Origin: a virus
Reading direction: 5' to 3' (one strand)
Length of the DNA stretch: 64,000 nucleotides
IMG/VR virus record: IMGVR_UViG_3300045988_145100
Location: 64,001-128,000 of that record
In this document: piece by piece, positions 33,670-63,852 of the stretch
Position numbering within the stretch: the first letter of the stretch is position 1
Layout of the letters: every line of letters begins with the position of its first letter
Program-made: the position numbers and the translations under genes
Notes under the pieces: model-generated
What the model was told of the DNA's origin: nothing
Seen by the model: the letters and a program-made list of their open reading frames with translations, nothing else
Databases searched by the model: none

Positions 33670-34155
33670 ATGATAAAAGGAAACAAGCTGATTGCAACAA
33701 TGAGGTCAATAATAGGTAAAGAAGTTAAAGAGGGCAACTGGCTCTGTGTTGATACAGTAGCAGATAATGCTCTTATGATAATCAATACAATCCACAGTGT
33801 AGTTAATGCTGTAGATTGCAAGATAATCCTCAAGGGGTTTATTTATGAGGATTCAGCAGAGTGTTGGGCAAAGTTAGAGATGGAACTTGACTGTCTCACT
33901 CAAGGCAATCAGCTTCAGGAGCTTTTCGGTGGAGCATTACTTAAGGAAATGCAGAATCAAGTAAACTCCGCAATCGCGGAGTTTGAACTCCAGGAAGTAA
34001 CCTACGGAGTTTATAATGGCAACACTCCAATCTTTACAGGGATTGAAAGTTATGGCACAGCATTATCAGTATTCTATAATACAGCTAAAGCTTGCAAAAT
34101 ACTAGGTCTTAGATGTAGCTTAGTAAATGAAAAAACTGGGGAGGTGGTAGAATGA
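33670..34155 (+). CDS. Hypothetical protein
   Basis: ORF-track frame 33640-34155. Preferred start is ATG 33670, which has SD gaaagaggt. Confidence 0.45.
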   Translation: MIKGNKLIATMRSIIGKEVKEGNWLCVDTVADNALMIINTIHSVVNAVDCKIILKGFIYEDSAECWAKLEMELDCLTQGNQLQELFGGALLKEMQNQVNSAIAEFELQEVTYGVYNGNTPIFTGIESYGTALSVFYNTAKACKILGLRCSLVNEKTGEVVE

Positions 34156-34329
34156 GTTTTTTAGAAGCTATAGTGATGGTGGAGCAATGCTCCACTGTCA
34201 CAGAAGTCAATCAGAAAGTTGACTTTGTGCTTACGCACATAGTCATATCTGATGACGAACTTCTTAGTCTTATGGAGTTCATCATCGGCTTCATGTCTAG
34301 TCTATTAGATGAGTGCGGAAACCGCTAAT
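34153..34329 (+). CDS. Small hypothetical ORF, 58 aa
   Basis: ATGA overlap with the upstream gene; stop lies in the loop of a 13-bp hairpin at 34300-34334. Confidence 0.25.
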
Positions 34330-34480
34330 CCGCACTCATCTAGTTTAGGAAAGACTAACTTGAGTTAGTCAAGCTTAATGCTTGTTAATTCAAACTAACT
34401 CTAGTTAGTCTTCCCGAAATCTAATTAGTTTAGTCTAACTATTGTTAGGCTTGACTAACTTTGGTTAGTTATTTTGAACG
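34330..34480. repeat. Cluster of palindromic iterons (A)CTAACT-N2-3-AGTTAG(T), locus 1
   Basis: At least four copies, e.g. actaacttgagttagt, actaactctagttagt, ctaactattgttag, actaactttggttagt. Confidence 0.55.
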
Positions 34481-34837
34481 GCACGCTTCCTCCCATAAAG
34501 CGTGTCGCATTTTGCCTATTTGACTAGTTATTTAAACTTTTCAAATCGACATTGAGTGTGACTACAAGACTAATCATATCCCATAATTGATGACTATTTG
34601 ACTACAAAAGTAAACACATCGTCACTATTGCTGACTAAAAAAGTAGTCACATCATCGTCTGGTGCATGTGTTTGGGTGCGTGAAAAGCCTTGAAAATAGG
34701 GCATAAAAAAATTTTTAAAAATTTTTGAAAAAAGTGTTGACATTGAAAACGGGGTATGATATTATAATGGTGCGGTGAACGAAAACCGTAAAATAAAATT
34801 GATAGTCTTTCAAGAGAGAGACAGAAAAGAGGTTACT

Positions 34838-35104
34838 ATGAAGAAATTAAATATGTATACAAAAGAGAAGTTCTCAATGAGATTTGCAAACTATGAGGAC
34901 ACAACTTATATATACGAAGATGTGAACATCTTCCATGCAGTCAATGCAATTAAAGCGTGTCCGCAGGTGTACATCATAAAGGTTGAGGGTGTAGAACTTC
35001 CGCCTATCGACTTTACACTTGAGAGGTTTAGAAAGATGACAAACAAGCAGTTTGTAGCAGTTCTGAACTCTTACATAGACAAGTTAATAAGTCTCGGCTA
35101 CTAA
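34838..35104 (+). CDS. Hypothetical protein
   Basis: Start ATG 34838 with SD aaaagaggt (the track ORF begins at 34775). Confidence 0.45.
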   Translation: MKKLNMYTKEKFSMRFANYEDTTYIYEDVNIFHAVNAIKACPQVYIIKVEGVELPPIDFTLERFRKMTNKQFVAVLNSYIDKLISLGY

Positions 35105-35146
35105 GCCGGGACTATCCAAGAGAAAAGAAAGTGAGGTATTATAAGT

Positions 35147-35455
35147 ATGATAAACATTAGGACAATAAGAAAGATTGAGGAGTGTGGCGGTTTAACACTC
35201 AAGAATGGTAAGATAATCACATACAAGAGTGGTTATCAAGTAGCCACCGAGGGAGTAATGGTTACAACTCCCGAGGAAGCAATTAAAGCCGTTAGAGCAT
35301 ACGGTGGTAATTGCGGACTTTGGCTTGAGAATGGCGTTTATTTTGTAGACAAGAGCCACAGAGTGTCTACAAAAAGAGACGCTTTGGCACTTGGTAGACA
35401 ATGCGCACAGATATCTATTCTCAAGTGGGCAGACATGAGTTTGATATATTGTTAA
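35147..35455 (+). CDS. Hypothetical protein
   Basis: 102-aa ORF. Confidence 0.4.
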   Translation: MINIRTIRKIEECGGLTLKNGKIITYKSGYQVATEGVMVTTPEEAIKAVRAYGGNCGLWLENGVYFVDKSHRVSTKRDALALGRQCAQISILKWADMSLIYC

Positions 35456-35516
35456 TGATTAGGGCTTGGGAAGCCAAGCCCACATATAAAAATAAAAATG
35501 AAATGAGGTATTTAAA

Positions 35517-35801
35517 ATGAGAAAAAACAATAGTAAAGCAATAGTTAAAAGAATAGCCCTGGGTTTAGTTTTAGGAATATTATTCTTAGGCGCGATATAC
35601 CTTGAGGGTCACTGTACAAGAGAGGGTAAGGTAATCAGCAATGATAATGGATTTGTGCGGATTGCTGATAGGGCAGGCGATATCTGGGAATATGATGGCT
35701 GTGATATCGCGGAGGGTCAAAATGTCAAGATGTTATTTGACATTAATGACCAGTCGTCTAAATATGACGACATAATATTAAAGGTTTGGGTTGCCAAGTA
35801 G
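35517..35801 (+). CDS. Small membrane-anchored or secreted protein
   Basis: N-terminal hydrophobic segment IALGLVLGILFLGAIYL; SD aaatgaggt. Confidence 0.45.
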   Translation: MRKNNSKAIVKRIALGLVLGILFLGAIYLEGHCTREGKVISNDNGFVRIADRAGDIWEYDGCDIAEGQNVKMLFDINDQSSKYDDIILKVWVAK

Positions 35802-35889
35802 CGGCAACCCTCCAAAATTCGATTTGCGTTCTCTAATTTTAATTAGCTACAAATATCTGTAATTAGCTGTATAAAATTAAAGTTAGAGA

Positions 35890-36062
35890 AGACGAATTGA
35901 AGTTCGTTTTATAAAAGTAAAGTTAGCAATTTTTAACAGTTGTTAATTCAAACTAACTCTAGTTAGATTAAGCTAATCCTTGTTAATTCAAACTAACTGT
36001 AGTTAGATTAAGCTAACTTAAGTTAGACTTATAAAACACTTGTTAGTTCAAACTAATTTAAG
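35890..36062. repeat. Cluster of palindromic iterons plus 35-bp direct repeats ttgttaattcaaactaactNtagttagattaagctaa, locus 2
   Basis: Two near-perfect 40-bp tandem copies and a third degenerate copy; the agttag/ctaact half-sites recur throughout. Confidence 0.55.
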
Positions 36063-36113
36063 TTAGAATAATCGCACCGGGCGGAGCACGTCCGGCCCCG
36101 CCGGAATTTGCCT

Positions 36114-36142
36114 ATTATACCACCTTTTAGGATTTTTGTCAA
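36114..36142 (-). promoter_or_regulatory. Leftward sigma70 consensus promoter (TTGACA-N17-TATAAT on the minus strand) abutting a GC hairpin terminator, module A
   Basis: Plus strand: attata at 36114-36119 and tgtcaa at 36137-36142, 17-nt spacer. Confidence 0.5.
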
Positions 36143-36347
36143 GGGAAAAAAGTTGACATATTGCACAAACATTATCCCAAAATCTTGTGCAGTTTTGACT
36201 ATTGCAATTTTGGGGCAATCTGCTATAATGATACTTGTAAGGGAGATAACAAATGAGATTGCTAAACAACCCGAACAAAAAAAAAGAAGTGCTTGACAAA
36301 TAGATACCTAAGTGATATAATAAGGGTATAGAAAGGAAGTAATGGTT

Positions 36348-36744: not shown

Positions 36745-37122
36745 ATGGAAAAGAAGATTACAAAGTTACAGGTTATCGAGGCTATGCTTGGAGAAGAGTT
36801 CGTACAGGACAATGAGATGTATAAGACTTATCTTATGCACGAAAAGGAACTCCTTGAGAAGAAGAAAGCTAAGGCTAAGGCTGGTTCTGATAAGAAAGCT
36901 AAGGCTAATGAAGCACTGGTTGAGAAGCTCAAGGTTGTCCTTGACGGTTTCAAGGGTACTTCTACTCAGATTATGCTCAAGGCTATGAAAGACTTCCCTG
37001 CTGATGAAGCGGTTCAGGCGCTTTCTAATCAGAAAGTAGTTGCACTTCTCAAGATTATGGTTGCCAATGGCACAGCAAAGAGAGAAGAGGAAAAGGACAA
37101 GGCAATCTTCTCACTTGTCTAA
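36745..37122 (+). CDS. Putative winged-helix DNA-binding protein, paralog A1
   Basis: 125 aa; N-terminus MEKKITKLQVIEAML is identical to the paralog at 41656. C-terminus ...QKVVALLKIMVANGTAKREEEKDKAIFSL has a wing-like pattern. Confidence 0.45.
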   Translation: MEKKITKLQVIEAMLGEEFVQDNEMYKTYLMHEKELLEKKKAKAKAGSDKKAKANEALVEKLKVVLDGFKGTSTQIMLKAMKDFPADEAVQALSNQKVVALLKIMVANGTAKREEEKDKAIFSLV

Positions 37123-37178
37123 TCTGCGGACGGGCGGTTGAAATACACCGCCCAATTTAAAAGAAAGAGGTATAGGGC

Positions 37179-37544
37179 ATGGATAGTAAAAAAGAAGCCT
37201 TAGAGAAGTTAGCTTTAAAGATTTTCAAGGAATGTGAAGCAGACGGAGAACCAGTCACAAAAGAAGAAGCTATGGAAATGGCGGAAATGGAAATCAAAGC
37301 TAAGGGAATAAAAAACTATGTTAAGGGTGCGGAAGCTGAAAAGAAACCGCGGAAGCCACGAGAAGTAAAACTCGATGATGAAAAGGTTGATTTTATCGGG
37401 TGTTTAAAAACTCTACTTGGAGGAATGGTACTTAATGGCAAGATTAGTAATGTTCAGATAGCCAATCCGCAGAAAGAGTTGACCTTTAACATCGGCGAGA
37501 ATGAATACTCACTGTCGCTGATAAAGCATAGAAAGAAAAAGTAG
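37179..37544 (+). CDS. Hypothetical Lys/Glu-rich protein, paralog B1
   Basis: 121 aa; C-terminal segment resembles the gene at 42081. Confidence 0.4.
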   Translation: MDSKKEALEKLALKIFKECEADGEPVTKEEAMEMAEMEIKAKGIKNYVKGAEAEKKPRKPREVKLDDEKVDFIGCLKTLLGGMVLNGKISNVQIANPQKELTFNIGENEYSLSLIKHRKKK

Positions 37545-37550
37545 CTGTAA

Positions 37551-37584
37551 GCTGATGACTAAACTAATAGTCATCAGCTTTTTA
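37551..37584 (+). terminator. Rho-independent terminator
   Basis: 11-bp stem gctgatgacta/tagtcatcagc followed by ttttt. Confidence 0.65.
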
Positions 37585-37588
37585 TGCT

Positions 37589-37632
37589 CAAAAAAGACCG
37601 CCCTGTGGGCGTCCGGCTTCGCCGGTATTTTG
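37589..37632. terminator. Bidirectional double-hairpin terminator, module B
   Basis: cgccc-tgt-gggcg and ccggc-ttc-gccgg, flanked by aaaaaag on the left and tatttt on the right. Confidence 0.6.
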
Positions 37633-37634
37633 AT

Positions 37635-37663
37635 ATTATATCACATTTTGGCATTTTTGTCAA
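37635..37663 (-). promoter_or_regulatory. Leftward sigma70 consensus promoter, module B
   Basis: Minus strand reads TTGACA-N17-TGa-TATAAT (plus strand attata 37635-37640, tgtcaa 37658-37663). Confidence 0.5.
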
Positions 37664-37742
37664 GAGAAAAATCAAAATAAAAAATTTTTTTATTTTCCCA
37701 AAACTGCTTGACATTTGCTTATAATCTGTTATAATTATAATT

Positions 37743-38555: not shown

Positions 38556-38900
38556 ATGTTTAGAAATATCGTTATGTTTTGTTTAATGTTTCTTATTTGT
38601 TCATTCTTCGGTATAATAATAATTAGTAATATGAATACTAAAAAGAAATGGTTAAAAATATTAGTATTTATTATAACTACAAGTATAATTGCGGGTTTAT
38701 TCTCTTTTGGTCTTATACAAGAGGCAGATAGCGATATAAAAACATGGAATAATGGAATTTGTACAGAATGCGAAAATGGACATTATGAATTTGTTAGTGC
38801 TTCCAGTCGCGGAAGAGGTGTAGGAGGTACTAACTATTATTATTATAAATGTGATAGTTGCGGAAATGTAATAGAAGTAAAAAATTTGTATCAGAATTAG
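38556..38900 (+). CDS. Membrane protein with a C-terminal zinc ribbon
   Basis: Two TM segments; CTEC...(20)...CDSC. Confidence 0.4.
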   Translation: MFRNIVMFCLMFLICSFFGIIIISNMNTKKKWLKILVFIITTSIIAGLFSFGLIQEADSDIKTWNNGICTECENGHYEFVSASSRGRGVGGTNYYYYKCDSCGNVIEVKNLYQN

Positions 38901-38922
38901 TGCGGAAATCCGCACTTTTTCT
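38900..38922 (+). terminator. Rho-independent terminator
   Basis: gtgcgga-aa-tccgcac followed by ttttt. Confidence 0.6.
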
Positions 38923-38969
38923 TTACATTTTCACCGCGCTCTGCGCGACCGGCTTTGCCGGAATTTTGC

Positions 38970-38998
38970 ATTGTAGCATACTTTCGGTAATTTGTCAA
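38970..38998 (-). promoter_or_regulatory. Leftward sigma70 promoter, module C
   Basis: Minus strand TTGACA-N17-TACAAT. Confidence 0.45.
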
Positions 38999-39214
38999 GC
39001 GATTTTATGTACTAAAATAAAAACAATTTTTTCCTAAAAAATGCTTGACATTCTCTTGTAGTAGGTCTATAATTATAATTGTTCAAGGGGAACAGAGAAA
39101 AACAGATAACAACCGAGATTGAAAACAAGTTTTTTAAAAAACCACTTGACAAAATAATAAAAAGGGTGTTATAATAAACACATAGAAATCAAAGAAAAGA
39201 GGTATCATTTAGAA

Positions 39215-40692: not shown

Positions 40693-40796
40693 TAGTCAGT
40701 TGCGGGTAGGCAGAAATGCCTACCTTTTTAGTTATGACTAAAATTTTCGTCAGAAAATCATCGCCTGGAAGGCGTCCGGCTTCGCCGGTATTTACC

Positions 40797-40825
40797 ATTA
40801 TACCATACTTTTGATATTTTGTCAA
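40797..40825 (-). promoter_or_regulatory. Leftward sigma70 consensus promoter, module D
   Basis: Minus strand TTGACA-N17-TATAAT, 10 bp from the ccggc-ttc-gccgg hairpin. Confidence 0.5.
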
Positions 40826-41158
40826 GCGAAATCCGCACATAAAACTGCACAAATATTTTCCCATAACTTTGTGCATATTGTCTATTGCAATATCTGCCTC
40901 AAAGTATTATACTATTCAATGTAAGGAACAGAGAAAAGCAGATAACAAATGAGATTGAAAACAAAGTTTTTCAGAAAGTTCTTGACAAATAAGTTACAAA
41001 ATGTTATAATAACAATGTAGAAAGGAGTTGACAATTATAAAAAAATATGTTATCATATAAATATAGAAAGGGGTTGAGTTTTATGATTGTTACAATTGTT
41101 TTGGTAATTATTTGTTTCGGCGCATGTTCGCCAAGAGTTTAGAAAGTGAGGTAGCTGT

Positions 41159-41655: not shown

Positions 41656-42036
41656 ATGGAAAAGAAGATTACTAAATTACAGGTTATTGAAGCAATGTTA
41701 AATGAGGAATTTATTCAGGATAATGAGATGTATAAGACATATCTCACACATGAGAAAGAGTTGCTCCTTAACAAGAGGAATAAGAACAGCAAGGATAATG
41801 AGAAGAAGTCTGCTGCGAATAAGGCTCTGACAGAGAAGCTGTTGGAAGTAATGAAAGATGTAAGCGGAACTGCTACCCAGTTGACTTTCACACTGATGAA
41901 AGTTTACCCAGATGACGCAGATGTTATGGCATTAACTAATCAGAAAGTTACTTATCTCTTAAAGGAACTCGCGCAGGCTGGTACTATCAAGAGAGAAGAA
42001 ATTAAGGGTAAGCCTATCTACTCTTTAATTGAATAA
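41656..42036 (+). CDS. Putative winged-helix DNA-binding protein, paralog A2
   Basis: Shares its N-terminus and overall architecture with the gene at 36745. Confidence 0.45.
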   Translation: MEKKITKLQVIEAMLNEEFIQDNEMYKTYLTHEKELLLNKRNKNSKDNEKKSAANKALTEKLLEVMKDVSGTATQLTFTLMKVYPDDADVMALTNQKVTYLLKELAQAGTIKREEIKGKPIYSLIE

Positions 42037-42080
42037 TTGCGGGCGGGGTAATGCTCCGCTCCCTTAAAAGGGGTGTTTAA

Positions 42081-42419
42081 ATGAAAAATGAATTTTGCGA
42101 GGATTGCGCAGATAAAAATATTTGTAATGGAGATTGTCCATATTTTGAAGAAGAACAGAAAGAACTTGAGGAAAAAGCTAAGAAAATTAAGATAGACCAC
42201 GGCGCAAAGGCAGAAAAGTCTGAGAAAAAAGAGAAAAAACCTAAAACTGTTAAGGTTTCTGATGAAAAAAAGGAACTTTTTGATATGATTTATGGCGGTT
42301 TGATTGATAATTATGGCGAAAATGTGGAAATTCTAAAAGAAAATAAGCTAATCCAGGTTAAAATTAATGAAAAAATCTTCAAAGTGGATTTAATTGAACA
42401 GAGAATGAAGAAGTCCTAG
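42081..42419 (+). CDS. Hypothetical Lys/Glu-rich protein with an N-terminal Cys cluster, paralog B2
   Basis: CEDCADKNICNGDCPYF; C-terminus similar to the gene at 37179. Confidence 0.4.
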   Translation: MKNEFCEDCADKNICNGDCPYFEEEQKELEEKAKKIKIDHGAKAEKSEKKEKKPKTVKVSDEKKELFDMIYGGLIDNYGENVEILKENKLIQVKINEKIFKVDLIEQRMKKS

Positions 42420-42629: not shown

Positions 42630-43283
42630 TTAATCCTTGTTAGCTCTCCACTCTTTTACTAATATAGGCATTGTATTATATTTCGCTTTAAATCTCTCAA
42701 GTGCGCACTTATAGAAGCTTTTTTCTTGAGAAATATCTTCTCCCTGTTGTTCACGATAGAATGCTTTGGCAGCAGCCGCTTCATCTATTCTTTCTTCTTT
42801 CAGTATATTGCGCCAATCAGTGAGGACTTCCGCAGATAATGGTTTATATGTTTTATAATCTACCCATACCTGGTGATTATTAGTTACGCCATATTTATCA
42901 AACGGTTCCTTTACATATCTCTCTGTTACAGAGCGCTGAGAATAATGACCATATCTCTCTCTACCGAAAGAAGAAATAGCTTCGCGCGCAATTTTAGATT
43001 TACTATTAGGTTTAAATTCTGTACCTAAAGCTTTAATAGTAAAATCTTCATAATCTTTCTTCTTTTGTTCTAAGTTACACTTGCGAGGTAATTTTGGAAT
43101 AGATTCGGGCATCTCTCCTTTTATCTCATAAGTGTAACGACCTCTTTCAGATTTTATTTCTTTAATATCCATAAAATCTTGGAGATGATTTAATAAATCA
43201 TCATGTCTTCTTTTCCAAAGCTCTAAGGTTATAGAAGGATATTTTTCTTCTAATTCCCTTCTTGTAAAATAACGAATTTCCAT
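42630..43283 (-). CDS. Hypothetical regulator-like protein on the opposite strand to its neighbours
   Basis: Start ATG 43281-43283 with SD aaggag (the track ORF extends to 43397). Its upstream region carries large inverted and direct repeats. Confidence 0.45.
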   Translation of the reverse strand: MEIRYFTRRELEEKYPSITLELWKRRHDDLLNHLQDFMDIKEIKSERGRYTYEIKGEMPESIPKLPRKCNLEQKKKDYEDFTIKALGTEFKPNSKSKIAREAISSFGRERYGHYSQRSVTERYVKEPFDKYGVTNNHQVWVDYKTYKPLSAEVLTDWRNILKEERIDEAAAAKAFYREQQGEDISQEKSFYKCALERFKAKYNTMPILVKEWRANKD

Positions 43284-43379
43284 TTTTATTTTCTCCTTTC
43301 TTTTATATCCGTCAATATTATTCCTTTTTTGTAAAAGAGACCTTATCTTCTTTTGCCCAAAAAATTTTGTTTTTAGGTA

Positions 43380-43560
43380 AAAGTGGTTTTGGGGCAATTT
43401 TTGTGTATATCTATATAATTAACCACCTACACAAAAATTGCCCCAAAAATGCGAGTGAGAGAACTACAAGATACCTGTATTTTCCCGAATTTTTGTCCTA
43501 GTCCTTAATTAACCACCTACACAGAAATCAGGGAAAATACAGGCCTCCCAAGAGAGAAAA
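43380..43560. repeat. Two large inverted repeats (17-bp and 13-bp perfect arms), each enclosing the direct repeat TTAATTAACCACCTACACA
   Basis: ggggcaatttttgtgta/tacacaaaaattgcccc and cctgtattttccc/gggaaaatacagg; the direct repeat sits at 43418-43436 and 43503-43521. Confidence 0.55.
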
Positions 43561-44082: not shown

Positions 44083-44159
44083 TATACCCTCCCCGGGATA
44101 GACGATATTCGTCTTCTTAGAATTTCAATCGAATAATAAAAAGTTATATGGGAGATAGG

Positions 44160-44335
44160 GGTTGCACACTACACAACCTCTATTTTTATTGTATTTTAAT
44201 ATATTTTTATTATTACACAACCTCTATTTTTGTTATTTTTATTGTATTTTAATATATTTTTATTATTGCACAACCCCTATTTTATTACATTTTAATTAAA
44301 AAAATATAAACAAATACAATCCCTATTTTTTTAAA
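44160..44335. repeat. Three tandem copies of an AT-rich repeat of about 53 bp
   Basis: (t)tgcacaacctctatttttattgtattttaatatatttttattat repeated with minor variation. Confidence 0.6.
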
Positions 44336-44384
44336 ATGTGTAACACTTTAAAAATATCACATTTATCTAAAATCCCAACAGATT

Positions 44385-44478
44385 CATTCATTTTTTATAT
44401 TTTAACTTACCAATATATATATACTTATATATAGGTAAGTTAAAATTCATTTTCTAGGTAAATCTGTTGGGATTTCAT
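44385..44478. repeat. Imperfect palindrome of about 95 bp centred on (AT)n
   Basis: cccaacagatt...ttttaacttacc-aatatatatatacttatatata-ggtaagttaaaa...aatctgttggg, with outer 11-bp and inner 12-bp perfect arms. Confidence 0.55.
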
Positions 44479-45198
44479 TCAAATAACCGTTAGGTTATTT
44501 GATACTAACTTAAATTCATTTCTTGTAACAAGAGTTCCCTTAACAATTTGACAACCTAATTTCTCTTGTAGCTCTCCTAAAAATAACATAAAATTATTAC
44601 CTTTCATATTAGTTAATTCACTTAATACTTCCCATGCATCTTCTTTTCTAATCTCTCCAGATTCAACCATTCCCGCAACTAAAATCTGTTTTTCATCAGC
44701 ATTTCCAAAATATTTCTTAATCAAATTCTTTTTAATATTCTCTTCTTCTTCTGACAATAGCTCATACTTTCCATCATCTCTTTTTTTACACCAAACATAA
44801 ACGCAACTGCCGATTTCCCCTTCTCCACAGAAAGGTCTTCCATATAATTCATTTCTTCCTTTAGTTGTATAAACATATGCGGTTGATGGTTTTACTGGAA
44901 GTTCTTCTCCATAAAAACTAACTATTTGATTACTAACATTCTTACAAGAGTCCAATCCATTTTTACTCCAAAAGTCATTAATCTTTTCTTTAATCATATC
45001 GTAAGGTCTAACTCCTTTCTTATATATAGGATTAATTATTTCATCTATAAAAACTCTTTTTCCTTCTAAATGATATTTAAAATAATTATTATCTAATTCT
45101 TTTAAATATTCTTTCTTTCTAGTATTAAAACCTCTTTCAGACATTCCCATCCATGCGGCAATCTCTTTATTTGTCATTTTACCTAATTTTAATTCCAT
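44479..45198 (-). CDS. HTH-containing protein, candidate regulator or iteron-binding protein
   Basis: N-terminus MTNKEIAAWMGMSERGF is HTH-like; 239 aa; adjacent to AT-rich tandem repeats and a palindrome. Confidence 0.4.
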   Translation of the reverse strand: MELKLGKMTNKEIAAWMGMSERGFNTRKKEYLKELDNNYFKYHLEGKRVFIDEIINPIYKKGVRPYDMIKEKINDFWSKNGLDSCKNVSNQIVSFYGEELPVKPSTAYVYTTKGRNELYGRPFCGEGEIGSCVYVWCKKRDDGKYELLSEEEENIKKNLIKKYFGNADEKQILVAGMVESGEIRKEDAWEVLSELTNMKGNNFMLFLGELQEKLGCQIVKGTLVTRNEFKLVSNNLTVI

Positions 45199-45545: not shown

Positions 45546-45788
45546 TTAATTAGGTAAAAACTTAATATAAGTTCCTCTCATTCCCGCGCTTTTAACTTCA
45601 AAAACTCCAATCAAATCTAATTTTTTTAACATACTACTAATACTTGTGCGGGAAAGGTGTATTTCATCTGCAAAATGTGAAACATTTACACAAGTTTGTT
45701 CTCCTTGAACAAGTTTCTTTAAAATTGCTTCATATGCCATATATTCATTAGGAGTTAATATCTCCTTTACTGTTCTTTTGTTACTCAT
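45546..45788 (-). CDS. Winged-helix transcriptional regulator
   Basis: 80 aa; ...IHLSRTSISSMLKKLDLIGVFEVKSAGMRGTYIKF, a MarR/Crp-like recognition helix and wing. Confidence 0.5.
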   Translation of the reverse strand: MSNKRTVKEILTPNEYMAYEAILKKLVQGEQTCVNVSHFADEIHLSRTSISSMLKKLDLIGVFEVKSAGMRGTYIKFLPN

Positions 45789-56881: not shown

Positions 56882-56999
56882 TTGATATTTATAAAAATTT
56901 ATGTTATAATATTTATATAATAAATAAGACACAAACAGCAATTTTTTAGCTTATAAGAAAGCACTACTCTGTTAAAGTAGATAACTGTGTCTTGTGTTT

Positions 57000-57073
57000 G
57001 GTCCTTTAGCTCAGCTGGTTAGAGCGCTCGTCTCATAAGCGAATGGTCCTGGGTTCGAGTCCCAGAAGGTCCA
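57000..57073 (+). tRNA. tRNA with anticodon CAT (Met / fMet / Ile-lysidine class)
   Basis: Hand-folded cloverleaf: acceptor ggtcctt/aaggtcc (one T-T mismatch), D-arm gctc-agctggtta-gagc, anticodon loop ctCATaa, T-arm ctggg-ttcgagt-cccag. Confidence 0.6.
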
Positions 57074-57582
57074 TTTAAGAATTTATCAGTTCTTAATGCG
57101 TGCATACAGTATTAGATATGTTGACTTGCTTATCAAATAGTTATAAGTCGTGAGTTACTGCGTTAAAGATGACAAGTTGTATGATAATAGTTTTCTTAAA
57201 GCTTTTATTAGGGCGGCAACCTGCCGATAACAAATAGCCATTTTTTAAAAATTTTTGGACAAAGTAATTTAAGTATTATAAAATATTTTTTATATAAAAT
57301 ACAAACTTGAAAAATATAAAAAAATATGATATAATATTTATATAAAGAAAAGAGGTAAGTTACTACCCATGCTTCTCCTCTATAAAAAAGAAGGTATGCA
57401 GGGTGAGGTTGACGGAGAGCGACTAAGGCTGCGGTTTACCCAAGAGAATAAAATCTCCTACTAGCGAAATCTAGTTAAAACTACCAAATTACTCATAGTC
57501 GTATAACAGTAATTTGATTTTTATAAAAATTTATGTTATAATATTTATATAAGATAAAGAAAAAAATATTTTTCCTCTCTCA

Positions 57583-57653
57583 TTCAAAGGTAGGATGCAC
57601 GCCTGTTAAGCGTAGAATCTGGGTTCGAATCCCAGGGGAGGAGCTTCCAGTTG
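57583..57653 (+). tRNA. tRNA-Asn (GTT)
   Basis: Acceptor tcctctc/gggagga, anticodon stem (c)acgc/gcgt(a) with loop ctGTTaa, T-arm ctggg-ttcgaat-cccag. Confidence 0.55.
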
Positions 57654-57915
57654 CGGAACTGGTTAAATAAAACCGAGTAGTCAGTTGTCAGTAACCTTGT
57701 TAAAACTGTCAATGTTCATATCCGAAGAGATTTCAGTGTTCGGTAGAGGTTATGAATGAAGAATGTAGTGAGTTCGATTCTTGCTTGTCCGCCGTAGTTG
57801 GACACATGGTGGCATTTGAAGTATTCCTTGTTGGTTGATTAAATGAAACATGTTGCCGCATGTGGATTAAAATACCAAAATACCTTGACTATAATGACGG
57901 CAATCATTATAGAAA

Positions 57916-57989
57916 TGCTTGTTAGTTTAAATTAATTGGAAAAACACTCCGGGAAGGGGAGATGTTGGGTTCGAATCCCACACAAGTGA
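57916..57989 (+). pseudogene. Degenerate tRNA-like element: canonical T-arm but aberrant D and anticodon arms
   Basis: ttggg-ttcgaat-cccac T-arm and a pairable acceptor, but a 13-nt D-loop, a 4-bp anticodon stem and loop gggaagg with purines at positions 32/33. Confidence 0.25.
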
Positions 57990-58264
57990 TTTTGTCAAAG
58001 CAAAGACATTAAAACTCGCTGATTATTAGGTGTGAATAATAGTCGTTGGCTACATGCGTAAGAAAAATAGTTCGAGAGAGCTATCGGAGCCGTAGAGGAG
58101 AAAGATATCGGCATATGGATAACACACTCCTAGATGCGAGAAATCAAATTAAAGGAAGATGGTATATGCAGCTAATAGAGAGAGTAAAGAGCGCTAGCTT
58201 GTAGCGAAACAACCTGCCAAAAGTAAGTTTATTGGTTTATCTTACATTGGTGAAAAACCTTTTA

Positions 58265-58335
58265 ATTTTATAATCTGGTTTAGTTTAATGGTAGAACCCT
58301 GGCTTTGTAACCCAGTAACGAGAGTTCGACTCTCT
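58265..58335 (+). tRNA. tRNA-Thr (TGT)
   Basis: Acceptor tctggtt/aaccaga, D-arm gttt-aatggta-gaac, anticodon stem ctggc/cccag (C31-C39 mismatch) with loop ttTGTaa, T-arm gagag-ttcgact-ctctc. Confidence 0.55.
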
Positions 58336-58373
58336 CAACCAGAATTAGTACTTTAGTACTAGAAAGGAATGTT

Positions 58374-58652
58374 ATGAAAATATGGCTTGATGATTTAAGA
58401 AAAGCACCTTGCGGATATGTGTGGTGTCATTCAGTTAATGAGACTATATTATTTATTGAGAAGAATAAAAGTGATATAGAATTAATTGATTTAGACCATG
58501 ATTTAGGTGATTTCGCTAAAGATGGCGGCGATGCTATTTATTTAATGGATTATTTAATAGAAAAGAAGTTATTCTATAAGCTAAATTTTCATACTGCAAA
58601 TCCAGTAGGCTTAGCAAATATGTTAAGATTGTATGATAGATACTGGGTATAA
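58374..58652 (+). CDS. Small hypothetical protein embedded in the tRNA array
   Basis: 92-aa ORF (MKIWLDDLRKAPCGYVWCH...) with SD aaaggaatgtt, lying between tRNA-Thr and tRNA-Ala. Confidence 0.4.
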   Translation: MKIWLDDLRKAPCGYVWCHSVNETILFIEKNKSDIELIDLDHDLGDFAKDGGDAIYLMDYLIEKKLFYKLNFHTANPVGLANMLRLYDRYWV

Positions 58653-58725
58653 GGGGCTGTAGCTCAGTTGGGAGAGCATTCGTTTTGCAAGCGAAAGGTC
58701 GTGGGTTCGAACCCCACTAGCTCCA
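58653..58725 (+). tRNA. tRNA-Ala (TGC)
   Basis: Acceptor ggggctg/tagctcc (two G-U pairs), D-arm gctc-agttggga-gagc, anticodon stem ttcgt/gcgaa with loop ttTGCaa, T-arm gtggg-ttcgaac-cccac. Confidence 0.6.
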
Positions 58726-58735
58726 TTAATCATAT

Positions 58736-58764
58736 TTGATTTTTATAAAAAAATATGATATAAT
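58736..58764 (+). promoter_or_regulatory. Consensus promoter copy inside the tRNA array
   Basis: ttgatt-N17-TGa-tataat. Confidence 0.6.
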
Positions 58765-58929
58765 ATTTATATAAGATATGAAAAAAGAAAAAATGTGAAA
58801 AAGATTTTGTAGTAGCATTAAAAATGACAATATACTAATCAGAAAATCTTTATGCGGAAACGCTCTGTAATTAGTATTTCAAGTTTAAATTAGATTGTTT
58901 GGCGTTAACAATAAAATAAAACGCCACTT

Positions 58930-59010
58930 GCGGGATTGGTGAAATTGGCAAACACATACGATTTAAGCTCGTACGCTTTAAGCTTGTGAGTTCGAGTCTC
59001 ACATCCCGCA
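58930..59010 (+). tRNA. tRNA-Leu (TAA), type II
   Basis: Acceptor gcgggat/atcccgc, TG-gtg-aaattggcaaa-cac D-arm as in bacterial tRNA-Leu, anticodon stem tacga/tcgta with loop ttTAAgc, 12-nt variable arm, T-arm gtgag-ttcgagt-ctcac. Confidence 0.65.
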
Positions 59011-59135
59011 CTAACCTAAGAAATTAAATTGTGGTATAAAGACATGATAACTAAGTCTTGTAAGAGATTATTTTATCTTTTATAAAAGTTTTCTTCTCTA
59101 CTAGTGAGTAACAAGCTTTTGAAGTTATCTTATAT

Positions 59136-59205
59136 GTATCATTCGTATAATGGTTTGTACGCTGGGTATTCCCTAGAAGAGTGAGTTCGAATCTTACATG
59201 ATACT
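59136..59205 (+). pseudogene. tRNA-like pseudogene with a 5-nt anticodon loop
   Basis: Perfect acceptor gtatcat/atgatac, normal D-arm and T-arm (gtgag-ttcgaat-cttac), but an anticodon arm ctggg-tattc-cctag. Total length 70 nt. Confidence 0.35.
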
Positions 59206-59313
59206 TTTTAGGCACTAACAGCGAATTTGATGATTCTAACAAACAAAAATATTTGTATGTAAAATGCTAAAGGCTTTATATCCTTTAATTAATCAATAGT
59301 GTCTAGTTTTTCT

Positions 59314-59385
59314 TGAGAGATAATATAATGGTTAGTATGCCTCTCTGATACGGAGGTCATCCGAGTTCAACTCTCGGTCTCTCAA
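59314..59385 (+). tRNA. tRNA-Ile (GAT)
   Basis: Acceptor tgagaga/tctctca, anticodon stem cctct/ggagg with loop ctGATac, T-arm ccgag-ttcaact-ctcgg. Confidence 0.6.
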
Positions 59386-59586
59386 TTTAACACTAGTCTG
59401 AATGGCGTGTCGCGGCGATAGGTCAGACGAAGATTATAGGAAAGTCTCCTGGCACATAATGAGATACTGCCTATATCAGACAGAAGCGAACTGTCTTTAA
59501 ATCAAATGATTAACTCTTACAGCAAAATATGTAGACAACACTATTTTTAAATAGTTTTCATAATACATACCCGAGTTTAGAAATAT

Positions 59587-59615
59587 TTGATTTTTATAAA
59601 AAAATATGTTATAAT
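59587..59615 (+). promoter_or_regulatory. Consensus promoter copy inside the tRNA array
   Basis: ttgatt-N17-TGt-tataat. Confidence 0.6.
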
Positions 59616-59765
59616 ATTTATATAAGATATGGGTTTATAAGTGGCTAGTAACTTCCGTCTAACTTACCCAGACATAGAGTTACCTTTTATCAAGAAAGTA
59701 AATCTTGGTCGTGCGACTACGAGAAGTTACTCTTTGCCAACTAGAGTATAATATAAGTTGGATTT

Positions 59766-59839
59766 GGCTTCTTCTTCTAATCGGTTTAGGAATCTAGGTT
59801 CTCATCCTAGGAATGTCAGTTCGAATCTGGCAGAAGTCA
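59766..59839 (+). tRNA. tRNA with anticodon CTC (Glu by the genetic code); identity is tentative
   Basis: Acceptor ggcttct/agaagtc, anticodon stem ctagg/cctag (perfect) with loop ttCTCat, T-arm gtcag-ttcgaat-ctggc. Confidence 0.45.
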
Positions 59840-59903
59840 TTCAGATGCGAAGTTTTGATAAGTTACCTCTTTTCTATATGCTAGGATTTTCTCCTAGCAG
59901 CTT

Positions 59904-59975
59904 GGCTCTTTCGTCTAGCGGTTAGGACAGCGCCCTTTCACGGCGCAGACCCGAGTTCGAATCTCGGAAGAGTCA
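59904..59975 (+). tRNA. tRNA-Glu (TTC)
   Basis: Acceptor ggctctt/aagagtc, D-arm gtct-agcggtta-ggac, anticodon stem gcgcc/ggcgc with loop ctTTCac, T-arm ccgag-ttcgaat-ctcgg. Matches the classic bacterial tRNA-Glu pattern. Confidence 0.65.
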
Positions 59976-60031
59976 TTTAATCAAAAATTTTTAAATTTTT
60001 GATATAAAGGTTTTGGTGGATAATTACCACC

Positions 60032-60066
60032 CTCCTTTACTTAAAGATATACTATAAAGTAAGGAG
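60032..60066 (+). promoter_or_regulatory. RNA hairpin that sequesters the ribosome-binding site of the GIY-YIG endonuclease gene
   Basis: 5' arm c032-t042 (ctcctttactt) pairs with 3' arm a057-g066 (aagtaaggag). The SD aaggag at 60061-60066 lies entirely inside the 3' arm, 6 nt before ATG 60073. Confidence 0.5.
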
Positions 60067-60072
60067 TATTTA

Positions 60073-60699
60073 ATGAGTTATATTTATAAAATTGTTAATT
60101 CTATTAACAATAAAATGTATATTGGTAAAACATCATTTCCAATAGAAAAAAGATTTCAAGAACATATTTCAGCTAGTAAAAAAGAAAGATGTGAAAAGCG
60201 TCCTTTATATGATGCAATGAATAAATATGGAATAGAAAATTTTTTCATAGAACAAATTGAAGAAGTTGAAAATGATGATATTGCTTGTCAAAGAGAACAA
60301 TACTGGATAAAGAAATTAAGAACATATGTAGGCTATGAAGATTGCGTAGGTTATAATGCTACTTTAGGTGGTGACTCAAGAAGATTATATGATTATGAAG
60401 AAATTTCTAAAAAGTATATTGAGTTACAATCAGTTAAAGAAACTTGTAAATTCTTCAATTGCGATAAGTTAGTTGTTAATTTAGCTTGTAAAGAAAATAA
60501 TGTAACAATTCTTGATGGTAGGCAAAGAAAACAAGTTAGGAGATACAATATAGATAAGACTGAATATAAAGATTATCCTTCAATAACAGAAGCTGCTAAA
60601 GATATCCCTAATAAACCAATAGAAACAGCAAGAAAAAATATCTCAAGAGCAATAAATAAAGGTTTAGTTGCTTATGGATATTATTGGAAAAGAATTTAG
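60073..60699 (+). CDS. GIY-YIG homing endonuclease (SegB-like, free-standing, inside the tRNA array)
   Basis: N-terminal YIYKIVNSINNKMYIGKT...R...EH...N GIY-YIG catalytic motifs; C-terminal basic DNA-binding region (AYGYYWKRI, NUMOD-like); 208 aa. Confidence 0.75.
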   Translation: MSYIYKIVNSINNKMYIGKTSFPIEKRFQEHISASKKERCEKRPLYDAMNKYGIENFFIEQIEEVENDDIACQREQYWIKKLRTYVGYEDCVGYNATLGGDSRRLYDYEEISKKYIELQSVKETCKFFNCDKLVVNLACKENNVTILDGRQRKQVRRYNIDKTEYKDYPSITEAAKDIPNKPIETARKNISRAINKGLVAYGYYWKRI

Positions 60700-60702
60700 T
60701 GC

Positions 60703-60776
60703 CGCGGGTTGGAGAAGTCAGAATCTCGTCGGACTCATTATCCGAAGAACGCTGGGGCAGAGCCAGCACCCGCTAC
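60703..60776 (+). pseudogene. Possible degenerate tRNA-like remnant (CAT-type anticodon loop) immediately after the endonuclease gene
   Basis: gcgggt...acccgc acceptor-like helix, anticodon-like arm tcgga-ctCATta-tccga, atypical T-loop ggcagag. Confidence 0.2.
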
Positions 60777-60901
60777 TTGGTTTTTCTGAATTTCTTCCTT
60801 TAAAAATTCAGTTCATATAAATTTCCTTTCTGTTAGCGGATTGGTTGACAATAATGTCAACCTTACCCGCTTGATATAAACAAAAGGAAATAAAAATCTA
60901 T

Positions 60902-60930
60902 TTGATATTATATAAAATTTATGATATAAT
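60902..60930 (+). promoter_or_regulatory. Consensus promoter copy
   Basis: ttgata-N17-TGa-tataat. Confidence 0.6.
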
Positions 60931-60973
60931 ATATATGTAACAAAGAAAAGGAAAAGAAAAGGAGATTTATATT

Positions 60974-61294
60974 ATGGCAGGACAGAATAAGAGAGTATCA
61001 AGAGTATCAAATGGTGGTAGAACAAAGGCTCATAAAGCTCAGGAAGCTAAGCGTCAGGCAAAGTTTGCTGCAAAGCGTGAAGCTGGAAAAGCTTATGTAT
61101 ATAAGGCAAATCCTTACAAGCCTTACACAAAGAAGTGGTGGATTGAAAAGGACAAGAGGGCGGAGAAAGCTAAGTCATCAAGAGTTCCTTATGCAATCGT
61201 AACATCAATCTTTGCTAAGCTTGATAATAAGATTGCTAAAGAGAAAGAAGCTGCAGCTAAGGCAAAAGCTAAGAAGGCTGCGGCAACCGCTTAA
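60974..61294 (+). CDS. Highly basic Lys/Ala-rich protein (histone H1-like / nucleic-acid-binding) inside the tRNA array
   Basis: 106 aa: ...AKRQAKFAAKREAGKAYVYKANPYKPYTKKWW...AKEKEAAAKAKAKKAAATA; SD aaaaggagat. Confidence 0.45.
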   Translation: MAGQNKRVSRVSNGGRTKAHKAQEAKRQAKFAAKREAGKAYVYKANPYKPYTKKWWIEKDKRAEKAKSSRVPYAIVTSIFAKLDNKIAKEKEAAAKAKAKKAAATA

Positions 61295-61306
61295 TAAAAT
61301 AAGCGT

Positions 61307-61380
61307 GCTAGAATAGCTCAAATGGTTAGAGCAGGCGTTTCATAAGCGTCAGGTTGCTAGTTCGATTCTAGCTTCTAGTA
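61307..61380 (+). tRNA. tRNA with anticodon CAT, second copy (Met / fMet / Ile-lysidine class)
   Basis: Acceptor gctagaa/ttctagt (G1-U72), D-arm gctc-aaatggtta-gagc, anticodon stem ggcgt/gcgtc with loop ttCATaa, T-arm gctag-ttcgatt-ctagc. Confidence 0.55.
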
Positions 61381-61385
61381 TTTAT

Positions 61386-61469
61386 AGGGGAGCGCCGAAG
61401 TTGGAGAGTCGGGGCGGTCTGTAAAACCGTTGCCTTCGGGCTGAGTGAGTTCGAATCTCACCTCCCCTA
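61386..61469 (+). tRNA. tRNA-Tyr (GTA), type II
   Basis: Acceptor aggggag/ctcccct, anticodon stem gcggt/accgt with loop ctGTAaa, long variable arm tgccttcgggc, T-arm gtgag-ttcgaat-ctcac. Confidence 0.6.
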
Positions 61470-61908
61470 CTAGGTTGGAGATTACCTAAAAATCTTCTGT
61501 TAAGCTTTTCTTAATTTTTTATATAAGGATTTTATAATACCTAATATAAAAGATTATTGTTTTCCATAAAAGTTAATACTGAAAACAAAGATGTTTTGTA
61601 CAAACACCATATGTAAGTAGAGCTTCCGAGCTGCGATACTTCATTAAAGCCCATACCGCAATATTACTTTTAATAGATAGAAAATAATGCTCAAATGTAT
61701 TTTTTTGGTTTTAAAAGAGTTTATTAATGCGGGCTTTGTAATTAAACATTAGTAAACAAAATATAGTCCATACAGCAAATGTTCAAGAATATCAGATGAT
61801 TTTATTACTTATTAATTCTTACAGCTGTAAATTACACTGATGACTTATTAAATACTAAAACTTAGGACTTAGAAAATAATAGTTTTAATATAATGATAAG
61901 TCATTTTT

Positions 61909-61980
61909 GCTTCTATCGTTCATCGGTTAGGACAATGTCCTGTCACGGCATAGAGGTGGGTCCGACTCCCACTAGAAGCG
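61909..61980 (+). tRNA. tRNA-Asp (GTC)
   Basis: Acceptor gcttcta/tagaagc, D-arm gttc-atcggtta-ggac, anticodon stem atgtc/ggcat with loop ctGTCac, T-arm gtggg-tccgact-cccac (atypical C55). Confidence 0.55.
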
Positions 61981-62435
61981 TTCACCATAGTTTAAGTATA
62001 ATGAGTTTTAATTAGTAAGTACATGACGATGTTACTGAAGATTAATACATAGTTATACATCAAATTAATTCTTGACTATAGCAGGGGTGATTTGTAGAAC
62101 AGTCTGCCAGTAGCAGAAAGATTCAGTAGAAGTCTGAGGGTGACTTTAATGTTTTTGTGCTAAGCACAGTATTCTAATTTTACTAAACAAAATTTTAAGT
62201 ACAAGAATTGGTTTAGTGCTGCAGTATTTATCAGTATTGTAGCTATGCTGTTGATGATACAGCCGAGGTTAAAGAGCGTTAGTGACCAGTGGTGGTGTTA
62301 TGCTTTGTAATGAAGCATGTTAAGCTAATGACACACGGTTAGGTTTGAGATGTAGAGAGCAAGTCTCAGAAGGCAAGACCTATCAGAATAACAAGCATCT
62401 TAGGGTTGCAACCTCATGATAGGAAATAGCTAAAT

Positions 62436-62507
62436 GCAGGTGTAGTACATCGGCTAGTGCGCCAGACTTCCAATCTGGATAGACGGGTTCGATTCCCGTT
62501 ACCTGCT
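62436..62507 (+). tRNA. tRNA-Gly (TCC)
   Basis: Acceptor gcaggtg/tacctgc, anticodon stem ccaga/tctgg with loop ctTCCaa, T-arm acggg-ttcgatt-cccgt. Confidence 0.6.
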
Positions 62508-62622
62508 TTATCGTAGGGGTTTGGAATCCCCTAAATGAGGCAACCGCCGCGATAATACAAAATTCTTGCAAGAAACAAAATATTATACAATAGAATTCTT
62601 ATTGGTTGTAGGTTCTATTGTT

Positions 62623-62696
62623 TGTGGTGTAGCTCAATCAGGTAGAGCGTTAGCGGCTGGAGCTAAAGGTTAGAGGTTCAAATCCTTTCACCACAA
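62623..62696 (+). tRNA. tRNA-like gene with a non-canonical anticodon loop ggCTGga (G at position 33); possibly Gln-CTG, or a pseudo-tRNA
   Basis: Perfect acceptor tgtggtg/caccaca, D-arm gctc-aatcaggta-gagc, perfect 5-bp anticodon stem ttagc/gctaa, T-arm agagg-ttcaaat-ccttt. Confidence 0.35.
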
Positions 62697-62809
62697 TTCT
62701 GTAGTCGGCATTGGTAAACATAGGAAACTAGATGTCGATGGTTATGAATAAGGATAAAAGTTGCAACAAAACTTGTTCAGATTATGCGGAATTGCAACAC
62801 CGCATTTTC

Positions 62810-62883
62810 GGGGAATTAGCTCATATGTGGCAGAGCACTCGGTTGAAGCCCGAGGCGGAGAGGCTCGATACCTCTACTCCCCA
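62810..62883 (+). tRNA. tRNA-Phe (GAA)
   Basis: Acceptor ggggaat/actcccc (one A-C mismatch), D-arm gctc-atatgtggca-gagc, perfect anticodon stem ctcgg/ccgag with loop ttGAAgc, T-arm agagg-ctcgata-cctct (atypical T-loop). Confidence 0.5.
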
Positions 62884-63029
62884 TTTTATTAAAGGCTTAA
62901 ACAGCAATTCAGTGTAAGTACTGGTTGAGAAAAACAAATATTAAAATATTAAAGTTATTAAATAACGAGCCTAGCATAATAGATTATTTCTTAATTTTAA
63001 TATAAAGTAGCTTTATAGTTACTCTTATT

Positions 63030-63103
63030 GCGCCTATAGCTCAGTTGGCTAGAGCATCAAACTTTTAATTTGAGGGTCCCGAGTTCGAGTCTCGGTGGGC
63101 GTA
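63030..63103 (+). tRNA. tRNA-Lys (TTT)
   Basis: Acceptor gcgccta/tgggcgt, D-arm gctc-agttggcta-gagc, anticodon stem tcaaa/tttga with loop ctTTTaa, T-arm ccgag-ttcgagt-ctcgg. Confidence 0.6.
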
Positions 63104-63408
63104 TTAAAATATTAGTGCCTTAACTGAGAGTCAGGATTCAAAGGTTAAATGAGGTAATCAGTCCATAAATCAGCTAATACTTTTAATGTAAGATAAAAGA
63201 AGAAAAAGGGTTTAGGACTTCTTTTGTAACGATACACAAACCAGCAACCCTGAGCTTTATATTAGCAACAGTCCACGAAGTAATTTTCTAGGAGTGCTGT
63301 TTAGGTGGTTATCTCTTACAAAAATAAACAGTAGAAAGGAGATAAATATGAGAAAGGATATTCATACAGCTTTTCACCTATAAGTTCTTTTTAAAGGAGG
63401 AATTATAA

Positions 63409-63684: not shown

Positions 63685-63686
63685 TT

Positions 63687-63771: not shown

Positions 63772-63774
63772 TTT

Positions 63775-63846: not shown

Positions 63847-63852
63847 CTTATT

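Follow-up and report, generated by a model that had tools for sequence, protein, structure and literature searches.

Phased arrays of inverted GTTAG repeats in the early region of a gut Clostridia siphophage, a candidate family of operator arrays

Repeated short DNA sites are used by several described systems. At the lambda origin, four palindromic iterons lie about two helical turns apart and are bound by dimers in a wrapped O-some, and cluster A mycobacteriophages carry stoperators, many intergenic copies of one repressor site, which block transcription downstream of promoters. In pSM19035, arrays of 7-10 short direct or inverted repeats (parS1-3) lie at several promoters; the omega protein, small and dimeric, forms a cooperative helical filament on these repeats and acts as a global regulator (PMC5016525). 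TubR, which reads the tubC repeats, is a winged-helix protein (PMC5016525). The SPBRE of SPbeta is a repeated cis-element found in about ten promoter regions and bound by one repressor, MrpR (PMC10516654). MepR, a MarR-family protein of Staphylococcus aureus, binds inverted GTTAG repeats as a winged-helix dimer; at mepA, two of its sites abut (PMC3936728). Here, two arrays of inverted CTAAC and GTTAG half-sites are described in 64,000 nt of an approximately 150-kb phage genome (IMG/VR record IMGVR_UViG_3300045988_145100, positions 64,001 to 128,000). This whole stretch is called the window, and its own numbering is used throughout.

A first-pass annotation of the window had reported two clusters of the palindrome CTAACT-N2/3-AGTTAG around a three-gene block, and the clusters are real. 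In 64 kb the palindrome matches exactly five times, where dinucleotide shuffles predict 0.04, and all five copies, each with the N2 spacer, fall at 34355-34468 or 35953-36066, within the two stretches reported. When up to two mismatches are allowed, nine of ten matches lie within the two clusters, and the window-wide scan gave no sign of a motif common throughout the genome, as AT-rich composition would make it. Both loci stand, but the left edge given for the second, 35890, does not, as array 2 begins about 60 bp further left. The near-perfect tandem repeat described in the second locus was recovered by Tandem Repeats Finder as a 40-bp unit inside array 2 (35934-36017, 2.1 copies, 88% matches). 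The arrays and the sites within them are as follows.

34335-34468, no strand: array 1, seven slots in a 20-bp register
34355, 34395, 34435 and 34455: starts of the strong CTAAC-N4-GTTAG sites of array 1
34335, 34375 and 34415: starts of the weaker in-register slots of array 1
35833-36066, no strand: array 2, 12 slots in a 20-bp register
35953, 35993, 36013 and 36053: starts of the strong sites of array 2
GTTAGTCATGACTAAC and CTAACTCTAGTTAG, as well as the full arrays: candidate targets for a binding protein

Both arrays, about 1.5 kb apart, keep a strict register, as seen when the sequence is laid out in 20-bp steps. The half-sites CTAAC and GTTAG alternate at centre-to-centre distances of 9 and 11 bp, so that two overlapping dyads, CTAAC-N4-GTTAG and GTTAG-N6-CTAAC, are displayed on the same helix face in each 20-bp unit. 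Among the strong slots are weaker ones that keep the register, TTAAT-N4-GTTAA being an example, and the right half-site of array 2 fits [AG]TT[AC][AG] in all 12 slots. Outside the arrays, matches with up to two mismatches occur at chance level in the window, both for the N6 reading (40 against 30 expected) and for the N4 reading (29 against 29.8). Matches with no or one mismatch all lie in the arrays, save for one isolated one-mismatch N6 match at 44494.

The surroundings of the arrays are those of an early transcription region. Leftward genes, among them those for the terminase, a YonG-like protein and the sigma-like protein phrog_5767, extend up to about 32.7 kb. From there the early region runs rightward. 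Its many small genes are orphans, each of them served by a near-perfect sigma-70 promoter and closed by a hairpin terminator. Both arrays are intergenic within this region and lie between terminator-like hairpins and consensus sigma-70 promoters.

34304-34344, plus strand: stable terminator-like hairpin with a 16-bp stem (-26.8 kcal/mol, z = -7.4), the left border of array 1; it overlaps the stop codon of gene 34152-34328
34479-34507, plus strand: GC-rich hairpin (-14.4 kcal/mol, z = -3.6) at the right border of array 1, then ATTTTGCC
34559-34653, plus strand: direct-repeat family TGACTACAAnAnTAAnCACATC (TGACTAC...), three copies spaced by 40 and 33 bp, after array 1 and before promoter 34737
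34737-34765, plus strand: strong promoter (11/12) of the three-gene unit, 269 bp downstream of array 1
36073-36104, minus strand: GC-rich hairpin between the leftward promoter and array 2
36114-36142, minus strand: perfect consensus promoter TTGACA-17-TATAAT with TG, aimed into hairpin 36073-36104 and array 2
36202, plus strand: rightward promoter
36293-36321, plus strand: perfect promoter of the next unit (genes 36342, 36745 and 37179, genes being named by their first coordinate), 227 bp downstream of array 2

The stem at 34479-34507 shows partly compensatory change in relatives, with one compensatory change, one G-U to G-C replacement and one new mismatch. At the place equivalent to the TGACTACAAnAnTAAnCACATC repeats, the related locus L001 has a different repeat, ACATCAAG...CTTGATGT, in four copies.

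The window comes from a siphophage of about 150 kb that infects gut Clostridia, of a lineage distantly related to phAss-1 and SPbeta. It has 19 tRNA genes, a 3110-amino-acid (aa) open reading frame (ORF) and about 32% GC. The large terminase shares 45% identity with its counterparts in Enterococcus phage H1, Geobacillus virus E3 and phage phAss-1, and about 35% with SPbeta-like YonF. The phAss-1 group itself consists of siphoviruses of about 136 kb from gut Eubacteriales, with tape-measure proteins of about 3150 aa (PMC10607447).

Related loci, labelled L001 onward, were compared with the window. A query of two adjacent sites, CTAAC-N4-GTTAG-N6-CTAAC-N4-GTTAG, matched 29 stretches of IMG/VR, whose arrays hold 4-31 slots at spacings that are mostly multiples of 20; one such locus has six arrays within 14 kb. 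The same two-site scan, run on one genome per species, found arrays on contigs of metagenome-assembled genomes (MAGs) of Oscillospiraceae, Lachnospiraceae, Eubacterium and Erysipelotrichaceae from gut and rumen, and one MAG contig carries eight perfect tandem 20-bp units. Most array-bearing contigs share early or core genes with the window, which points to one phage lineage. MT835855, the closest phage in the database, is unannotated and was the sole relative returned by nucleotide searches of the phage collection. It has an array directly after its homolog of gene 35147; a further array, 4.5 kb off, lies upstream of another gene. A perfect promoter lies 45-80 bp away and is aimed into the array in the window, L002, L003, L021, L032, L001 and L045; for five of the six L029 arrays listed, a consensus or near-consensus promoter lies 33-78 bp off, with its -35 end toward the array.

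Relatives retrieved through the 35147 protein have no arrays, and many of them carry the 16-bp palindrome GTTAG-N6-CTAAC, single or paired. L016 has 27 such sites in 12 kb, and in L016-type relatives the pairs take the form site-N6-GCCGGC-N6-site. Single or paired sites follow most early-gene terminators of L016, L014, L007 and L087, 50-130 bp upstream of the next promoter, and 6 of the 14 L016-type intergenic units listed have a leftward consensus promoter about 22 nt off, aimed at the sites. Wherever they occur, the sites are intergenic, in the early region and beside consensus promoters. No GTTAG sites occur in 20 kb of other relatives whose 35147 homologs are of similar identity, nor in the first 50 kb of phAss-1 (OQ749652); the motif is thus patchy within the lineage. 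The phAss-1 paper mentions neither repeats nor promoters (PMC10607447), and no description of the arrays was found in the literature searched. The arrays are a real, conserved and previously undescribed family of cis-elements of a known general kind.

The pattern of sequence change bears on whether the element works as DNA or as RNA. One possibility would be that the leftward promoter yields a non-coding RNA of repeated short hairpins, acting as a sponge or as a processed small-RNA array. The perfect promoter is well placed to transcribe array 2 and the equivalent arrays of several relatives, and the leftward promoters of the 6 of 14 L016-type units are aimed through the site pair to a bidirectional terminator. 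A frequency matrix of 300 in-register 20-bp slots from non-redundant loci nevertheless shows no compensatory covariation, as Watson-Crick pairing between mirrored positions is not above independence. At positions 1 and 14, 42 left-only and 37 right-only changes stand against three two-sided ones. Folded as RNA, array 2 has no defined structure and an unpaired centroid, and Rfam returned nothing above threshold, only sub-threshold microRNA-like hairpin noise. Together, these results suggest selection on the half-site sequence, as in protein-binding DNA, rather than on a hairpin. Furthermore, a strict 20-bp register that includes weak in-register slots is a property of double-stranded DNA, and L029 and L054 have no 12/12 consensus promoter on the array-facing strand. 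A function as RNA is therefore highly improbable. CRISPR-like repeats with unique spacers also differ, as the 20-bp period leaves just six non-motif bases per unit.

The same matrix indicates what is conserved. The consensus of the 300 slots is aCTAACtnnaGTTAGt, 91% of the slots have at most two mismatches in ten to it, and half-site changes are mostly variants that the matrix tolerates (C/T at position 5, A/G at position 10). By alignment, array 1 is better conserved than the genes beside it: across the flanking genes the near-identical genomes L002 and L003 are 86-88% identical to the window, against 97% column identity across array 1. In array 2, the sole internal length difference from relatives is exactly one 20-bp unit, with a further short length difference at the right edge.

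The first-pass annotation had proposed replication origins, partition centromeres and operators for a dimeric protein side by side. The operator reading is now favoured, and the other two have become weak. Protein binding, filament formation and a regulatory outcome are what we infer from the arrays, their register and conservation, the sequence-level constraint, and the placement of promoters and hairpins. We propose that these are phased operator arrays that would nucleate a cooperative filament controlling or insulating early transcription, and we consider this reading evenly balanced between right and wrong. A sequence-specific, two-fold symmetric protein, either a phage accessory protein or a host protein, would bind the dyads as dimers. 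Isolated sites in relatives have the form GTTAG-N6-CTAAC, and the 16-bp dyad is on this ground the likely dimer site, which would make the 9-bp junction the contact between neighbouring dimers. Dimers on adjacent units could then touch, giving cooperative filaments of 7 and 12 units. Such a filament might be a roadblock to the leftward promoter aimed into array 2, might insulate neighbouring transcription units, or might silence the adjacent rightward promoters, possibly by a loop between both arrays. Promoters that already have a perfect consensus presumably call for repression and not for activation, which favours a filament that represses or insulates.

Four features argue for transcription control over an origin or centromere: intergenic early sites by consensus promoters, promoters aimed into arrays, the L029 promoters with the -35 end toward the array, and the site pairs at most early transcription units of L016-type relatives. 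Other observations weigh against the operator proposal. The sites lie 33 to 300 bp upstream of promoters, or inside a leader, so that one simple repression geometry does not fit all cases. No binding protein was found, and none of the phage gene families observed co-occurs cleanly with the motif. Homologs of the winged-helix protein of gene 36745, next to array 2 and discussed below, occur with the same SNQK start of the recognition helix in loci that have no GTTAG sites within 4 kb. Every regulatory effect named above is, moreover, deduced from sequence.

Among described systems, pSM19035 omega is one of the closest functional analogues of such an operator array, with repeat arrays near promoters. 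It differs in having contiguous 7-bp heptads, a ribbon-helix-helix binder and a centromere role with a ParA partner, whereas the present arrays have a 20-bp unit with two inverted 5-bp half-sites, and no ParA was found. Stoperators resemble the distribution of sites in L016-type relatives and the promoter aimed into array 2; they are asymmetric and oriented with transcription, whereas the present sites are palindromic and, in this genome, form phased arrays. SPBRE comes from a large siphophage with YonF- and YonG-like genes in common with the present lineage, and homology to it was considered and rejected. The motif derived from seven SPbeta promoter regions (ACAAATACAAAAAATATGTATATAA-like) is unrelated to the array motif and occurs as single sites, not phased arrays. 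The first 100 kb of SPbeta contain neither GTTAG-N6-CTAAC nor CTAAC-N4-GTTAG, and no MrpR-like or integrase-like protein (tyrosine-recombinase fold) is present among the window ORFs scanned. The arrays share the defining features of none of the known families compared and are best filed with arrayed operators.

Palindromic sites phased about two helical turns apart also recall the lambda O-some, and the arrays could be replication-origin iterons bound by an initiator in that manner. They lie near the strand switch and the cumulative GC-skew minimum at about 32 kb, and the strong promoter aimed into array 2 could provide transcriptional activation. The skew switch, however, coincides with the change of transcription direction and is confounded by it. 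The lambda origin is a single locus inside the initiator gene by an AT-rich unwinding region, whereas the present arrays vary in number and place: relatives range from none to at least six arrays, or have a pair in most early intergenic regions, at differing positions. No adjacent initiator is apparent, as the neighbouring ORFs have no initiator match in Pfam, PHROG, NCBIfam or PDB. The window also offers a more classical candidate, and an origin at the arrays is very unlikely.

44100-44470: alternative origin or genome-terminus candidate, extremely AT-rich and non-coding, with three 53-bp iterons ACACAACCYCTATTTTT... and a palindrome of about 100 bp at about 44365-44470

This segment adjoins a 239-aa gene with a helix-turn-helix (HTH)-like N-terminus (44479-45198, minus strand), and the contig ends of two near-identical IMG/VR genomes map to it. 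It may thus be an origin or a genome terminus.

One of the genes between the arrays had been suggested as the source of the binding protein.

34838-35104, plus strand: gene of 88 aa
35147-35455, plus strand: gene of 102 aa
35517-35801, plus strand: gene of 94 aa

None of the three is supported in this role. Gene 34838 is found in near-identical genomes only, and the product of 35517 has an apparent hydrophobic N-terminal segment, judged from its sequence. The 35147 family has 3735 database homologs at roughly 65% identity or more, the best 120 of them at 66-97%. The AlphaFold2 model of 35147 (predicted local distance difference test, pLDDT, 92) gave no significant PDB fold match and no DNA-binding fold. 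Gene 35147 was rejected as the binder on account of this confident model and of homologs of about 70% identity in 20-kb loci that lack GTTAG sites. Conservation at the level of 35147 is unusually high for an early phage gene.

MepR, which reads the same GTTAG half-site, is a precedent for a winged-helix binder. The MepR spacer is 4 bp (GTTAG-N4-CTAAC), whereas here the half-sites are arranged as GTTAG-N6-CTAAC or CTAAC-N4-GTTAG; MepR also has one or two sites overlapping the promoter core, whereas the present sites are clear of -35 and -10 elements. No MarR-family domain was detected above threshold in the window ORFs. A winged-helix protein is encoded close to array 2.

36745-37122, plus strand: winged-helix protein of 125 aa, in the operon after array 2 and 679 bp downstream of it; paralog at 41656-42036

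Its model (pLDDT 91) consists of a long helix and a winged helix and resembles YodB, the centromere-binding protein AspA of pNOB8, viral F-93 proteins and PadR/LmrR. The family lies no more than 700 bp from arrays in the window, L032 and L054, and also occurs in L014, L007 and L037. Relatives have two or three paralogs per genome, with variable recognition helices. As distant homologs with the same start of the recognition helix occur in motif-free loci, 36745 and 41656 are only weak candidates. The protein is part of a duplicated two-gene module (36745-37544 and 41656-42419, plus strand), in which it is followed by a lysine-rich partner of about 115 aa with a conserved C-terminal half; the gene after 36745 encodes 121 aa.

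The position of this operon is also an argument for a centromere. The arrays could be partition sites of the parC, tubC, sopC or pSM19035 omega type that segregate a plasmid-like prophage, with gene regulation secondary. In TubR-tubC, ParR-parC and SopB-sopC, as here, one to three blocks of phased tandem repeats lie by the operon of a small DNA-binding protein, and blocks of phased repeats upstream of a small winged-helix operon resemble tubC/TubR and parC/ParR in particular (PMC5016525). Array 2 is upstream of the operon with 36745, whose fold matches include AspA but whose family does not track the motif. Those systems, however, have an adjacent tubulin-, actin- or ParA-type nucleoside triphosphatase (NTPase) gene, and no ParA-, ParM- or TubZ-like NTPase was detected among the ORFs scanned at 30-64 kb; the gene that follows 36745 has a product of just 121 aa. 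The visible 64 kb of a genome of about 150 kb showed no integrase or plasmid replication genes. Site pairs in the majority of early intergenic spacers, as in relatives, suit a regulator better, and a centromere seems quite improbable.

Other candidates fared no better. Gene 45546-45788 (minus strand), in a leftward cluster of small HTH genes at 42.6-46.2 kb, encodes an 80-aa stand-alone homolog of the CodY C-terminal winged-helix domain that lacks the sensor domain (Pfam HTH_CodY, 37.1 bits against a cut-off of 27; PDB CodY, E = 2e-8). It was rejected as the binder, as CodY boxes are unrelated to GTTAG and are not enriched in the window (27 against 21 expected). Searches of the neighbouring proteins against Pfam, PHROGs, NCBIfam and PDB gave almost nothing, and in a comparison of motif-positive with motif-negative loci no gene family both tracks the motif and occurs in the window.

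Two further protein families occur in relatives. L016, L014, L007 and L008 encode a family of about 150 aa with the motifs NKGENFE and GD...Q.K, in two copies per locus (for example L016 7775-8248). Its motifs suggest what we take to be a PD-(D/E)xK nuclease; it matches nothing in Pfam, the window has no homolog of it, and the relatives that bear it are rich in GTTAG sites. Small AbrB/MazE-type proteins (PF04014) recur in the early regions of L081-L091 (for example L082 5066-5323 and L084 11639-12082), and none was detected in the window.

Since no phage family tracks the motif, a host-encoded binder has to be weighed. The arrays might recruit or titrate a DNA-binding protein of the Clostridia host, for example of winged-helix or LexA-like type, as a landing pad or decoy. 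Consistent with this, phages with no more than 56-70% protein identity have an identical motif, its presence is patchy, and the layout CTAAC-N4-GTTAG is that of the Gram-positive LexA box CGAAC-N4-GTTCG. Exact LexA-box-like palindromes are, in addition, enriched near arrays in relatives, with 31 in 944 kb (L001 3347, 4177 and 8453; L028 192-248; L053 3362; L087 8848 and others). The array sites themselves are not LexA boxes, as 90% of the 300 slots have T at the second position of the half-site and 2% have G. The LexA-like palindromes are, moreover, mostly stems of small T-tailed hairpins about 90-100 bp off and out of register; the majority read CCGAACnnnnGTTCGG followed by a T-run, like a small terminator. 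The window has just two LexA-box matches, each with one mismatch (33478 and 35893). We know of no host protein with such specificity, and we regard recruitment or titration of one as unlikely.

A broader form of the proposal would make the arrays a new kind of phage 'chromatin' element. In it, 7-31 phased dyads would load a host or phage filament of winged-helix or LexA-like protein, and each array would be paired with an inward-firing consensus promoter as an insulator or as a decoy for a host regulator, timing early expression. We consider this rather unlikely; if true, early-gene timing would be set in this way in a widespread lineage of gut Clostridia phages of about 150 kb.

Phages like phAss-1 are common in the gut metagenomes of humans and ruminants, and orphan genes make up nearly all of their early regions. 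The array element, conserved and easy to recognise, provides a first way into the organisation of early transcription in this lineage, and a bait for finding its regulator. The motif also splits the lineage into positive and negative groups, which may mirror lifestyle or host range. With a host protein as the binder, the arrays would exemplify decoys carried by a phage; without one, they would represent a distinct arrayed-operator architecture, with a 20-bp unit, two alternating dyads and up to 31 units.

The three genes between the arrays had also been taken for a cassette, and the comparison with relatives speaks against this. The three genes do not move as a set, and 34838 occurs in near-identical relatives only. 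The arrays of relatives have other genes beside them, and homologs of 35147 occur with no motif. A different element marks the borders of exchangeable units. An intergenic module of about 250 bp occurs in four copies (36070-36340, 37545-37740, 38900-39180 and 40700-41020), each with a terminator, a CCGGC-N3-GCCGG mini-hairpin, a perfect leftward promoter (at 36142, 37663, 38998 and 40825) and then rightward promoters. Only the first of the four, at about 36.1 kb, has an array. Between the window and L002 or L003, early genes have been gained, lost or swapped at these modules, and L003 has an extra 1.26-kb unit immediately right of array 2. Such gain, loss and replacement suggest that early transcription units act as exchangeable cassettes, whose borders, on this comparison, are marked by the modules and not by the palindrome arrays. 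At promoter 37663, a terminator-like hairpin (37611-37599) lies close downstream, so that leftward transcripts would be very short.

Two further features of the window lie outside the array region. Upstream of the leftward gene 42630-43397, the segment 43380-43560 contains a 60-bp inverted repeat, ttttggggcaatttttgtg...cacaaaaattgccccaaaa, and two copies of TTAATTAACCACCTACACA. The 19 tRNA genes form a block at 56999-63939, which is broken by a GIY-YIG homing-endonuclease-like gene at 60073-60699 (Pfam GIY-YIG, E = 3e-10).

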